IMG/VR virus record: IMGVR_UViG_2627853910_000005
DNA length: 39,175 nucleotides
Reading direction: 5' to 3' (one strand)
From: a virus
Lineage: Duplodnaviria > Heunggongvirae > Uroviricota > Caudoviricetes
Of this stretch, positions 32,869 to 34,698 are shown one piece after another. Numbering within the stretch: position 1 is the stretch's first letter; each line of letters opens with the position of its first letter. The position numbers were made by a program, and so were the translations under genes. The notes below the pieces were generated by a model. The model was not told the origin of the DNA. It was given only the letters and a program-made list of their open reading frames with translations, and ran no database searches.

Positions 32869-33693
32869 ATGTCTCAGAACTTAGACGCAACCGCAATTAA
32901 TCAAATCCATGCCCTTATTTCTGCTCAGGGTGTTAATGAAATTATCAGTAAGATTGGTGCCGATGCTGTGGCATTGCCTGAGAATTTCCGCATTCATGAT
33001 CTGGAAAAATTTAATTTAAATCGCTTCCGTTTCCGTGGTGCGCTTTCCACTGCCAGCATCGATGACTTTACCCGTTATTCTAAAGATCTTGCAGATGAAG
33101 GCACCCGCTGCTTTATCGATGCTGATAATATGCGTGCCGTCAGTGTGCTTAACCTGGGTACTATTGATGAACCAGGTCACGCAGATAACACCGCCATTCT
33201 CAAACTGAAAAAGACAGCACCGTTCTCTGCTCTGTTGTCTGTTAACGGCGAGCGTAACTCCCAGAAGTCACTGGCAGAATGGATTGAAGACTGGGCCGAC
33301 TACCTTGTAGGCTTTGATGCTAATGGTGACGCTATTCAGGCAACAAAAGCGGCTGCGGCTGTCCGTAAAATCACGATTGAAGCAAACCAGACCGCTGATT
33401 TTGAAGATAATGACTTCAGCGGAAAACGCTCCCTGATGGAGTCTGTCGAAGCGAAGACCAAAGATATTATGCCAGTGGCATTTGAATTTAAATGCGTTCC
33501 GTTTGAAAGTCTGAAAGAACGTCCGTTTAAATTACGCCTCAGCATTATCACTGGCGATCGTCCTGTACTGGTTCTGCGCATTATTCAGTTGGAAGCAGTC
33601 CAGGAAGAAATGGCTAACGAATTTCGTGATCTGCTTGTTGAGAAATTCAAAGACAGCAAAGTAGAAACCTTTATTGGTACTTTCACCGCCTGA
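32869..33693 (+). CDS. DUF2303 (YfdQ-like) family protein
   Basis: 274 aa, the same length and position relative to the HD-domain gene as YfdQ in CPS-53-type prophages. Assignment from memory. Confidence 0.55.
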
Positions 33694-33820
33694 TTTCATT
33701 GCTGCAAATGCCCCTGCGGGGGCATTTATGGAAACGTAATTGACTCAACAATCGCCTGATAGCGAGGGCTTCCTTTTACCCGAATTCAGCGCGGTGCAGC
33801 GCATATACGTGGAGAACAAA

Positions 33821-34357
33821 ATGTCATTTATTAAAACTTTTTCCGGGAAGCATTTTTATTATGACAAGATAAATAAAAACGACATCGTGATTAACGATAT
33901 CGCGGTTTCCCTTTCAAATATCTGCCGCTTTGCCGGTCATCTTTCTCACTTCTACAGCGTCGCCCAACATGCGGTGCTTTGCAGCCAGCTGGTGCCGCAG
34001 GAATTTGCTTTTGAAGCGTTAATGCATGATGCAACAGAAGCGTATTGCCAGGACATCCCCGCACCACTGAAACGCCTTCTTCCTGACTATAAACGGATGG
34101 AAGAAAAAATAGACGCAGTAATCCGTGAGAAATACGAGTTGCCCCCGGTTATGAGTACGCCTGTGAAATATGCCGATCTAATCATGCTGGCAACCGAACG
34201 CCGTGATCTCGGGCTTGATGATGGCTCTTTCTGGCCTGTACTGGAAGGCATCCCGGCAACAGAGATGTTCAAAGTTATTCCACTGTCACCAGGCCATGCC
34301 TACGGGATGTTTATGGAACGTTTTAACGAGTTATCGGAGTTACGCAAATGCGCATAA
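33821..34357 (+). CDS. HD-domain phosphohydrolase (YfdR-like 5'-deoxynucleotidase)
   Basis: 178 aa from the ATG with SD GGAGAA. His and HD motifs (SVAQHAV, LMHDATEAY). Matches my recollection of YfdR. Confidence 0.75.
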   Translation: MSFIKTFSGKHFYYDKINKNDIVINDIAVSLSNICRFAGHLSHFYSVAQHAVLCSQLVPQEFAFEALMHDATEAYCQDIPAPLKRLLPDYKRMEEKIDAVIREKYELPPVMSTPVKYADLIMLATERRDLGLDDGSFWPVLEGIPATEMFKVIPLSPGHAYGMFMERFNELSELRKCA

Positions 34358-34698
34358 ATGTTTTCGAAATGGAAGGTTTTCTTCGCGGGAAATGTGTACC
34401 GCGAGATCTGAAAGTGAATGAAACAAATGCTGAGTATCTGGTGCGTAAATTCGATGAAGTACGTGCTGAGGCTCGCAACGAGGGTATTAACTATACCGCA
34501 AGCCGTCTTGCTTCTGCTTTCAATCACGGATTTATCAATAAGCCTTTGACTGAAGTTTTCGACGTTACACGCATGATTCTGTCAGCGAAAGAAGAGTTAG
34601 CTAATGAATCGCATCCGATTGATGGCCTGTCTGGTGAATATGCGGAGAAATCCCTTGAAGAATGGGCGGAACGGCTTCGCAAAGGGGGCAACCAGTGA
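34348..34698 (+). CDS. Hypothetical protein (116 aa)
   Basis: ATG overlaps the end of the HD-domain gene. No domain recognised. Confidence 0.5.
   Translation: MRINVFEMEGFLRGKCVPRDLKVNETNAEYLVRKFDEVRAEARNEGINYTASRLASAFNHGFINKPLTEVFDVTRMILSAKEELANESHPIDGLSGEYAEKSLEEWAERLRKGGNQ

Follow-up and report, generated by a model that had tools for sequence, protein, structure and literature searches.

We conclude, at a probability of roughly 0.6 for the reading as a whole, that this region is the yfdP-yfdQ-yfdR-yfdS'-yfdT' early-left gene set of a lambdoid prophage of the mEp460/CPS-53 type integrated between prfC and yjjG, in which the genes would be controlled through an sRNA-17 leader and YfdR, as in Escherichia coli K-12, would be a phosphohydrolase and DnaA binder. 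Throughout, the window denotes the whole 39,175-nt stretch of viral DNA that was analysed (IMG/VR record IMGVR_UViG_2627853910_000005). The presence of yfdQ and yfdR is real yet ordinary and already known: the K-12 copies have been studied, and yfdQ, yfdR and the small open reading frame that follows them are all annotated in RefSeq (YfdQ family protein; yfdR, 5'-deoxynucleotidase), with the same gene names given in RefSeq for a genome that is 100% identical over positions 32400-35100. Matches to the gene region occur in 3,468 of 5,426 complete E. coli genomes, about two-thirds. The sole item of the locus that is possibly new is a structured leader RNA around yfdP and yfdQ.

Table 1. Features of the early-left region and its surroundings, in window coordinates.
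Feature	Coordinates	Strand	Basis or remark
cI-like repressor (HTH + S24 peptidase)	31027..31719	+	Pfam Peptidase_S24 E=6.5e-19, HTH_3; RefSeq XRE family regulator
sRNA-17 (published, 193-nt transcript)	32110..32303	+	Primers of Sun et al. 2020 (PMC7719688, Table S2) map here
Leader, 5' half	32300..32420	+	RNAalifold, 18 genera
yfdP (120 aa)	32441..32803	+	99% identical to K-12 YfdP; invariant upstream partner of yfdQ
yfdQ (274 aa, DUF2303)	32869..33693	+	Pfam PF10065; 99% identical to K-12 YfdQ
Leader, 3' half	33692..33804	+	Covariation on 39 sequences; between yfdQ and yfdR
yfdR (178 aa), HD-superfamily metal-dependent phosphohydrolase	33821..34357	+	97% identical to K-12 YfdR; HD residues intact
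Mosaic yfdS-like ORF (116 aa)	34348..34698	+	Residues 1-42 86% identical to K-12 YfdS
Class I SAM-dependent (DNA) methyltransferase remnant, two pseudogene pieces	34695..35057	+	RefSeq pseudogenes 34695-34949, 34941-35057
yfdT-like mosaic ORF (131 aa)	35059..35454	+	Residues 73-130 76% identical to C-terminal 58 of K-12 YfdT
Anti-phage dCTP deaminase	36189..37784		NF041025 468.1 bits (cut-off 400), PADLOC dCTPase 547.9 bits, Pfam dCMP_cyt_deam_1

The early-left gene set and the limits of its conserved part

The cI-like repressor gene, which lies outside the module and serves as context, marks the start of the leftward direction and is followed by a terminator-like hairpin and T-run at 31740-31757. 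Both the repressor and the genes considered here are on the plus strand, with a cro-like gene on the minus strand, an orientation that fits the early-left placement made from the sequence alone. The prophage looks complete: its head, tail, lysis and Q genes are 99.9% identical to those of the APEC O1 prophage, and the window as a whole matches the complete APEC O1/S88 prophage at 99.9%. On these grounds we rejected an 18-kb defective remnant, which had been derived by assuming collinearity with NZ_CP019256, a genome that carries a deletion of about 22 kb relative to the window.

The closest known system is yfdP-yfdQ-yfdR-yfdS-yfdT of CPS-53 (KpLE1) in K-12, itself a 10-kb remnant, which shares with the window the gene order and orientation, the 127-nt spacer between yfdQ and yfdR, and the 10-nt overlap between yfdR and yfdS; the RNA element also matches that of K-12-like loci (L083, L084). 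The two differ downstream: in the window, all that the third ORF retains of YfdS is the first 42 residues, without DUF551; a methyltransferase gene, itself broken, has been inserted; and the resemblance of the yfdT-like ORF to YfdT is confined to the C-terminal 58 residues. They also differ upstream, where K-12 carries yfdO and, ahead of yfdP, the known SrsR boxes (TCAGATTTTGC); the window lacks such boxes, its single near-match being at chance level.

Beyond residue 42 the third ORF differs from YfdS and has no match to DUF551 or any other Pfam family, while the protein matches the C-terminal part of phrog_614. The methyltransferase remnant matches the DNA methyltransferase families phrog_11564 and phrog_954, and in related strains an intact methyltransferase occupies its position. 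The yfdT-like ORF matches phrog_660. These reading frames are closely packed, with the ATG of the third ORF overlapping the yfdR stop codon in a 10-nt overlap (ATGCGCATAA) and the GTG of the next ORF overlapping the third ORF's own stop (GTGA).

The sequence-only reading had treated yfdQ, yfdR and the third ORF as one translationally linked unit. The third ORF does overlap the end of yfdR, but yfdQ and yfdR, which are separated by 127 nt (33694-33820) of structured RNA, are not translationally linked. Nor do the three genes travel as a unit. Across the 80 species loci of a species-level genome scan, from which all neighbourhood counts were taken (an earlier viral-contig scan with a YfdQ alignment gave only near-identical E. 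coli copies and was not used for neighbourhoods), yfdP, which the unit had left out, lies directly upstream of yfdQ in 79; yfdR follows yfdQ in 59, and the third ORF recurs in 3. Comparison across these loci shows the conserved cassette to be yfdP plus yfdQ, with yfdR a frequent, separable follower, and K-12 workers likewise regard yfdPQ as an operon. The unit for genetic tests would be yfdP with yfdQ rather than yfdQ with yfdR and the third ORF.

That the gene at 32869 belongs to the DUF2303 family, as the sequence-only reading had it, was confirmed by Pfam PF10065, which YfdQ matches at 306.2 bits (E=2.4e-91; cut-off 26.6) over profile positions 2-269 of 269, and YfdQ also matches phrog_210 (E=1.7e-118). 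An AF2 model of YfdQ (pLDDT 75.7) found no whole-fold match in the PDB and, in BFVD, matched only other DUF2303 or unnamed proteins. A conserved loop of YfdQ that was left unmodelled (residues 171-198) and the tail of YfdP (residues 89-101) are candidate surfaces for contact between the two proteins. For YfdP and YfdQ, a part in DNA recombination or replication is suggested by the genes next to yfdPQ in distant relatives, which include a YqaJ exonuclease, SSB, DEDD 3'-5' exonucleases and a T7 Gp5.9-like segment. In one alternative the two proteins, optionally joined by YfdR as a partner of nuclease-like or phosphatase type, belong to the phage recombination or repair machinery, in place of exo-bet-gam or erf. 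The position of the genes between the repressor and xis/int corresponds to the lambdoid recombination region, and no recognised recombinase was found in that interval by Pfam, PHROG or RefSeq annotation. In some distant relatives the pair sits between a YqaJ-type exonuclease and SSB, and in others it adjoins either a YqaJ exonuclease with a Gp5.9-like RecBCD-inhibitor segment or DEDD 3'-5' exonucleases. Furthermore, deletion of yfdQ is described, in work cited in PMC4776307, as raising sensitivity to MMS and H2O2. However, comparison of the YfdP and YfdQ models with known folds turned up no single-strand annealing protein, no nuclease and no DNA-binding fold, and in Kistimonas (locus L153) an exonuclease and SSB are present alongside the pair, which has not taken their place. 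We regard this alternative as quite unlikely.

YfdR: an intact HD site and its possible substrates

YfdR differs from its K-12 counterpart at 5 of 178 residues, with the motif residues untouched. We used the ATG at 33821 as its start, in keeping with RefSeq and K-12, and rejected the TTG at 33740 that would give the longest ORF. The metal-binding residues of the HD motif are kept on alignment: the window protein has H50, H69-D70 and D119, which, like R36, E73, D78 and E126, do not vary across 19 genera whose proteins are 50-71% identical overall. These motif residues align with those of Atu1052 and of YfbR (PDB 2paq; PF12917; NF003009), a fellow member of the HD superfamily with which YfdR shares the motif H...HDxxE....D.P.P.K...D. 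We place YfdR in this superfamily because of its PDB profile match to 2gz4, Atu1052 of Agrobacterium tumefaciens, which is its closest solved relative (E=4.9e-25, full length); as an uncharacterised HD protein, Atu1052 offers a structure without a mechanism. YfbR itself matches the YfdR profile at E=0.015 over 39 positions only, those of the HD...D stretch.

Family profiles back the HD assignment of YfdR less strongly than the sequence-only reading had suggested. YfdR falls under the cut-offs of the YfbR-like family PF12917 (E=2.6e-5, 24.4 bits against 25.9), of the NCBIfam 5'-deoxynucleotidase equivalog NF003009 (19.6 bits against 122) and of HD_3 (16.7 bits against 22.5), and it has no match to PF01966 at E<=0.01; membership in the YfbR type of deoxynucleotidase, as judged by PF12917 and NF003009, was thus not obtained. 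It does match phrog_318, named 'deoxyribonucleoside 5' monophosphate phosphatase', at E=7.5e-109. YfdR-like HD proteins are more widespread than YfdQ, as they occur in 323 phage records against 184 for YfdQ, large genomes included: among the YfdR-like matches listed are phages of about 160-310 kb, and many of the proteins are labelled dNMP phosphatase.

What is published on the K-12 protein describes a poor nucleotidase. Noguchi & Katayama (PMC4776307), citing Zimmerman et al. 2008, describe K-12 YfdR as a low-affinity, weak 5'-deoxynucleotidase, with nucleotide affinities much below those of YfbR and a function that 'remains elusive'. In an engineered E. coli strain, deletion of yfdR did not raise the yield of CMP (PMC10870394). 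Both YfbR and YfdR are thus reported to be active on 5'-dNMPs, YfdR at much lower affinity, and, unlike YfbR, YfdR is phage-borne and, from the K-12 literature, binds DnaA.

These data bear on the proposal that YfdQ, YfdR and the third ORF form a deoxynucleotidase module, which would remove the phosphate from dNMPs and act with the dCTP deaminase to alter dNTP pools when the prophage is induced or the cell is superinfected. The invariance of the HD catalytic residues favours it, as do the RefSeq name 5'-deoxynucleotidase, the PHROG 318 annotation, the many dNMP phosphatase labels among the 323 phage records, and the recognised dCTP deaminase defence gene in the same prophage. On the other side stand the missed YfbR-type cut-offs, the low reported affinities and the unchanged CMP yield, to which the gene set adds its own objections: neither YfdQ nor the third ORF carries a nucleotide-related signature in Pfam or PHROG profiles (nor does YfdQ against the PDB), a quarter of the yfdPQ loci lack yfdR, and hardly any keep the third ORF. 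With YfdR as its only nucleotide-linked member, the module is not supported as stated, and we consider it unlikely. Located between xis and int, the deaminase gene is 1.8 kb downstream of yfdR, past xis. It is a separate, recognised gene of a known stand-alone defence type, and of the idea that two nucleotide functions act jointly on dNTP pools, the part that stands is the presence of the deaminase in the same prophage (468 bits against a cut-off of 400); its tie to yfdR is co-location only.

A second line of published work concerns DnaA. K-12 YfdR binds DnaA domain I through Phe46, in competition with DiaA and DnaB, and multicopy yfdQRS or yfdQRT inhibits initiation at oriC, an effect that required YfdS or YfdT besides yfdQR (PMC4776307; the inhibition is restated in PMC12122000). 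The effect was seen on over-supply only, deletion of yfdQRST had no replication phenotype, and the authors allowed for an artefact (PMC4776307). From this inhibitor set of CPS-53 the window holds the orthologues of yfdQ (99%) and yfdR (97%), and neither an intact yfdS nor an intact yfdT was found in it. Since only 42 residues of YfdS (1-42) and the last 58 of YfdT are kept, the inhibitory activity seen in K-12 cannot be assumed here. The DnaA site contacted by YfdR through Phe46 is also that of DiaA, DnaB and Bacillus SirA (PMC4776307). YfdR has no sequence relation to lambda P, SirA or DiaA, and among these proteins it alone has an intact catalytic site. Lambda P targets DnaA domain III.

Taken with the K-12 literature on the 97%-identical protein, the early-left reading would place YfdR in the Atu1052 subgroup of HD phosphohydrolases, its active site conserved in full and its activity on 5'-dNMPs weak. 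It would also bind DnaA domain I and, with YfdQ plus YfdS or YfdT, lower initiation at oriC, as found on over-expression. During lytic growth it would most likely serve, as an early phage function, to hold back replication of the host chromosome, to trim a nucleotide substrate, or both; the set would contain no dedicated dNTP-pool module. Catalysis matters, to judge by how strictly the catalytic residues are conserved; this would fit poorly with a mere DnaA binder and argues that the DnaA-binding story is incomplete, with the true substrate still to be found.

A further alternative casts YfdR as a counter-defence enzyme, its target for destruction being either an immune signal derived from a nucleotide or a modified nucleotide, with YfdPQ as unrelated passengers. 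HD hydrolases act on many nucleotide-derived substrates, strict conservation of the active site despite poor dNMP activity suggests a different true substrate, and yfdR is expressed early. Against this, PADLOC models gave nothing for YfdR beyond one chance-level match (E=0.006, 12 bits), and the idea comes without literature support and without a conserved partner that would hint at a particular defence system. We hold it to be very improbable.

sRNA-17 and a split leader RNA

Upstream of yfdP, the early-left reading draws on a published transcript. The primers of Sun et al. 2020 (PMC7719688) all map to the sRNA-17 region with 0-2 mismatches, and the RACE and Northern oligonucleotides are antisense to the plus strand. 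The 3' end of sRNA-17 is an intrinsic terminator, with a hairpin at 32258-32298 whose stem covaries across genera (alignment A6) and a U-run at 32300-32304; within the early-left leader, sRNA-17 is the terminated stretch closest to the promoter. In the published sRNA-17 deletion, yfdP rose 95-fold and yfdR went from 0 to 8 reads, a rise that read-through from the resistance cassette may explain. In a lysogen, transcription from the sRNA-17 promoter would start near 32110 and stop at 32258-32304, as shown in a near-identical prophage, where yfdP and yfdR are silent and both come on when the sRNA-17 region is disrupted; by extension the same would hold here. After derepression, transcription would read through the terminator into the folded leader, yfdP-yfdQ, yfdR and then the variable genes.

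The leader runs from the termination point of sRNA-17 to the ribosome-binding site of the next gene, here yfdR, and is interrupted by yfdP and yfdQ. In its 5' half, a closing helix of about 25 bp (P1; 32300-32326 with 32373-32397) surrounds a three-way junction and is followed, about 20 nt before the yfdP start, by a 5-bp GC hairpin with the loop UUGCAG (32405-32420). With sequences from 18 genera, RNAalifold predicted 42 base pairs. Compensatory changes occur in 12 of these, as at columns 31/139, where 9 genera have CG, 8 have GC and 1 has UA.

The 3' half comprises three hairpins, HP1 (33692-33741; inner stem 33706-33727), HP2 (33752-33765) and HP3 (33789-33804), the last of which has the loop NUGCAG and immediately precedes the ribosome-binding site of yfdR. 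Between HP2 and HP3 lies a conserved single-stranded stretch with the consensus GGGAUUCGUGCAACCAAAAU, which in the window (33766-33785) reads GGGCUUCCUUUUACCCGAAU. Among 39 sequences, 90.5% of cells were paired, compared with 35-44% when the 3' partners were slid, and the covariation score was 0.278, compared with 0.05-0.08; 17 pairs had changed on both sides, and the observed values were reached in 0 of 500 shuffles. We assign the fold to the plus strand because many of its pairs are G-U.

Neither the position of these hairpins before yfdR nor that of the 5' half before yfdP is peculiar to those genes. The 3' half was found after yfdQ even in loci without yfdR, and in 46 related viral contigs both halves are contiguous, with yfdP and yfdQ not found on the stretch fetched; in the 5 of these 46 that were inspected, another first gene follows immediately after the leader. 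On these two observations we rejected the idea that the yfdQ-yfdR hairpins regulate yfdR alone. Because the halves are continuous in phages without yfdPQ, the gene pair sits inside a conserved early-left leader. We therefore propose, tentatively, that yfdP-yfdQ is a two-gene cassette within a conserved leader of about 230 nt that is a candidate new cis-acting control element in a group of enterobacterial prophages. This RNA could act in antitermination, in RNase III processing or as a translational operator and, if the proposal is right, would set the timing of yfdPQ, yfdR and the remaining early-left genes. Together with the published sRNA-17 and its terminator, it supplies a testable model for how the operon is kept silent in lysogens and then switched on.

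Like lambda nutL and HK022 putL, the leader lies between the early-left promoter and the first early genes. Nevertheless, we rejected an element of the put or nut type: the leader has no match in Rfam, and nhmmer with both leader HMMs gave only E values above 0.7 against HK022 22.5-32.5 kb, a stretch covering the recombination genes of the early-left region as well as those for replication (O/DnaB), in which the put sites were not located. The architecture also differs, HK022 put being two adjacent stem-loops of about 70 nt and the window leader a predicted three-way junction with four hairpins, and no boxA-like sequence was seen in the leader. Unlike nutL and putL, the window leader is split by a two-gene insert.

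The GC hairpins of the leader share NKGCAG loops and lie about 15-25 nt before start codons. Two strict matches to this hairpin occur in the window against 0.43 expected, an enrichment that we set aside as too weak, and a third NKGCAG-loop hairpin lies on the minus strand at 27657-27672, inside the coding end of rusA.

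Limits of the yfdPQ unit and its prophage

The yfdQ-yfdR pairing is already known and annotated, and the window's YfdQ, YfdR and YfdP are 99%, 97% and 99% identical to the proteins of the K-12 prophage CPS-53. A profile search bore out the DUF2303 assignment of yfdQ (306 bits; cut-off 26.6). To place limits on the gene set, yfdQ loci from 80 bacterial species were fetched and then searched with the window proteins. yfdP lies directly upstream of yfdQ in 79 of the 80 loci, the remaining locus being truncated by a contig end, while yfdR follows yfdQ in 59 and the third ORF (116 aa) is present in three. 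Where yfdR is missing, its slot holds DEDD-type 3′-5′ exonucleases, SSB or small unknown genes. The third ORF is itself a mosaic that matches YfdS over residues 1-42 only, with the DUF551 part replaced, and the 131-aa ORF has only the final 58 residues of YfdT in common. On these locus counts and mosaic ORFs, the conserved unit is yfdP plus yfdQ; yfdR is a frequent accessory and the genes downstream are variable. The translational linkage proposed for yfdQ, yfdR and the third ORF holds at one junction, where the ATG of the third ORF and the yfdR stop share a 10-nt overlap, but not at the other, where yfdQ and yfdR are 127 nt apart. The stop of the third ORF also overlaps the next start (GTGA). 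Among phage records, YfdR-like HD proteins occur in 323 and YfdQ in 184, and the YfdR-like matches listed include large phage genomes of ~160-310 kb.

The 39 kb of the window come from a lambdoid prophage integrated between prfC and yjjG and extend from ydfK through the integrase. Five complete E. coli genomes match positions 32400-35100 at 100% identity, and 3,468 of 5,426 genomes have some match. The prophage looks complete, since APEC O1 and S88 carry one with tail, head, terminase, lysis and Q genes that the window's structural half (4000-28500) matches at 99.9% identity. Strain 13TMH22 (NZ_CP019256) carries the same prophage minus ~22 kb, a clean deletion corresponding to window 5047-27372; in strains with this deletion the head, tail, lysis and Q genes are all gone and KilA-N is fused to the tail-fibre gene, while the immunity region, yfdPQR and the deaminase are retained. 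A reading of the prophage as an 18-kb remnant was dropped, the comparison strain being the one with the deletion. O157, O111 and other strains have an intact methyltransferase, in a region longer by ~900 bp. The dCTP deaminase sits between the excisionase-like gene and the integrase with the 61-aa ORF just upstream, and GC there falls to 33-36%, typical of an acquired cargo gene. Two cspA thermoregulator matches in low-GC prophage islands seem to correspond to the cold-shock genes (cspI, cspB, cspF) of the APEC O1 prophage.

Features of the window, with strand and supporting detail
Feature	Position	Strand	Detail
cspA thermoregulator match	20423-20839	-	Rfam, 105 bits
cspA thermoregulator match	23855-24294	-	Rfam, 160 bits
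rusA-end GC hairpin	27657-27672	-	GGCGG GUGCAG CCGCC
cI-like S24 repressor	31027-31719	+	
sRNA-17 promoter fragment	31861-32110		
sRNA-17	32110-32303	+	limits from full-length primers
Terminator-like element	32258-32304		hairpin 32258-32298, then U-run
Leader, proximal half	32300-32420	+	
Proximal GC hairpin	32405-32420	+	loop UUGCAG
yfdP	32441-32803	+	
yfdQ	32869-33693	+	
YfdQ residues 171-198	33379-33462		
Leader, distal half	33692-33804	+	HP1, HP2, HP3
yfdR	33821-34357	+	
Third ORF	34348-34698	+	116 aa
Class I SAM-dependent DNA methyltransferase	34695-35057	+	broken, two pseudogene pieces
131-aa ORF	35059-35454	+	
Excisionase-like ORF	ends 35648	+	
61-aa ORF	35993-36178	+	phrog_9966
Anti-phage dCTP deaminase	36189-37784	+	531 aa; NF041025 468 bits; PADLOC dCTPase 548 bits
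Integrase	after deaminase	-	

A structured leader on either side of yfdPQ

The spacer between yfdQ and yfdR encodes a conserved structured RNA comprising two hairpins (HP1 and HP2), a conserved single-stranded stretch (consensus GGGAUUCGUGCAACCAAAAU; window version GGGCUUCCUUUUACCCGAAU) and a third hairpin (HP3) with the loop NUGCAG. The three hairpins recur at the same place in many genera, and the element, which begins at the yfdQ stop codon, was found in ~49 of the 80 loci, nine of them without yfdR. An explicit structure was tested on a 39-sequence alignment, with slid 3′ partners and 500 shuffles as controls. The fold pairs 90.5% of cells versus 35-44% with slid partners, its covariation score is 0.278 versus 0.05-0.08, and 17 pairs changed on both sides in a compensatory manner; none of the 500 shuffles reached the observed values. 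Frequent G-U pairs place the fold on the + (mRNA) strand. No Rfam family matched the spacer RNA.

Viral contigs were scanned with a pattern and the matches filtered by HMM, which yielded 85 copies of the element; for 46 of these, the stretch fetched contained neither yfdP nor yfdQ. In the five of these 46 contigs that we inspected, the element makes up the distal part of a single continuous leader, which starts on the repressor side and reaches the first early-left gene. Directly before the element stands the same GC hairpin (GGCGG-UGGCAG-CCGCC) as is found in the window ~20 nt upstream of the yfdP start. The two leader halves are 128 nt apart in one such viral contig, L176, and ~1.4 kb apart in the window, the difference being yfdP-yfdQ. 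Because the halves are contiguous in phages without yfdPQ, the pair looks like an insert within one leader. The proximal half is strongly structured as well: 42 pairs are predicted from 18 genera, of which 12 show compensatory changes, and a ~25-bp helix closes a three-way junction. The leader is a real conserved structure and may be new as an RNA, although sRNA-17, a part of it, has been published. In HK022, HMMs of either half match nothing at genome positions 22.5-32.5 kb, a stretch in which the put sites were not located. A third GC hairpin occupies the last part of the rusA coding sequence, with the KilA-N start of the early-right operon 20 nt further on; the enrichment is weak (2 strict matches versus 0.43 expected).

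Proposed transcription past the sRNA-17 terminator

Just upstream of the proximal half is a terminator-like hairpin and U-run. sRNA-17 was described as a 193-nt RNA of an mEp460-like prophage in E. coli K1 RS218 (Sun et al. 2020, PMC7719688), and every primer from that study maps to the window. Given the limits set by the full-length primers and the RACE and Northern oligos, which are antisense to the + strand, sRNA-17 is transcribed in the + direction and has its 3′ end at the U-run; it probably represents the first, terminated portion of the early-left transcript. The sRNA-17 promoter fragment was reported to be ArcA-modulated, and in the strain deleted for sRNA-17 yfdP went up 95-fold and yfdR reads increased from 0 to 8 (PMC7719688). 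The joint rise is direct evidence that both genes are silent in the lysogen and share one transcription path downstream of the terminator, although it may instead be an effect of the cassette promoter. The region upstream in K-12 is unlike that of the window, and yfdO and the SrsR boxes belong to K-12.

YfdR and the possible roles of the gene set

The window's YfdR has the HD residues, and a comparison of homologues (50-71% identity) across 19 genera found R36, H50, H69, D70, E73, D78, D119 and E126 invariant. Since the metal ligands never vary, the refuting condition named by the sequence-only reading, their loss on alignment, does not hold and the HD assignment stands. By curated profiles, YfdR nevertheless classes as no YfbR-type deoxynucleotidase, scoring below the Pfam (24.4 bits versus 25.9) and NCBIfam (19.6 versus 122) cut-offs. 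A YfdR profile matches YfbR at just E=0.015, over the motif stretch only, whereas it matches the uncharacterised Atu1052 (2gz4) full-length at E=4.9e-25. PMC4776307, citing Zimmerman et al. 2008, puts the nucleotide affinities of YfdR much below those of YfbR and calls its function elusive, and deleting yfdR in an engineered E. coli strain did not raise CMP yield (PMC10870394). On these profile scores and affinities, the module acting on dNTP pools proposed by the sequence-only reading is unlikely. That reading had recovered the database label and missed the sole mechanistic study, on DnaA and oriC. There, yfdQRST was isolated as a multicopy suppressor of hda-185, and yfdQRS or yfdQRT lowered oriC initiation; deleting yfdQRST made no difference, and the authors concede a possible over-expression artefact (Noguchi & Katayama, PMC4776307). 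The inhibitor description is repeated in later DnaA papers (PMC12122000).

We give a probability of roughly 60% to a composite mechanism that joins what is demonstrated here (which genes these are, that the HD site is intact, how far the conserved unit extends, the structured leader and where the sRNA-17 terminator lies) to weak dNMP hydrolysis, DnaA binding and inhibition of initiation on over-supply, as ascribed to near-identical proteins in the literature. Upon derepression, transcripts would read through the terminator and leader, so that YfdPQ and then YfdR are expressed; YfdPQ would act in DNA metabolism, and YfdR would be a phosphohydrolase on some substrate, restrain host initiation via DnaA, or both. 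That the set serves recombination or repair is somewhat less probable still than the dNTP-pool module. In the distant relatives Kistimonas and Pontibacterium the yfdP-yfdQ pair adjoins YqaJ-type exonucleases, one with a T7 Gp5.9-like tail. A counter-defence hydrolase, for which YfdR has the catalytic residues, seems very improbable; PADLOC defence models matched no protein of the set except the deaminase.

Structure searches with the predicted models of YfdQ (pLDDT 75.7) and YfdP (pLDDT 70.5) found no whole-fold match to known structures. YfdQ 171-198 and YfdP 89-101 are among the most conserved segments, yet have pLDDT <50; judging from these models, they may fold upon binding a partner, possibly each other. 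The protein encoded upstream of yfdP-yfdQ in the Pontibacterium MAG locus (L160, 3029-4615) is 528 aa long; it combines a YqaJ-type recombinase exonuclease domain with a C-terminal match to the T7 Gp5.9 RecBCD-inhibitor family (PF25708, E=2e-13).
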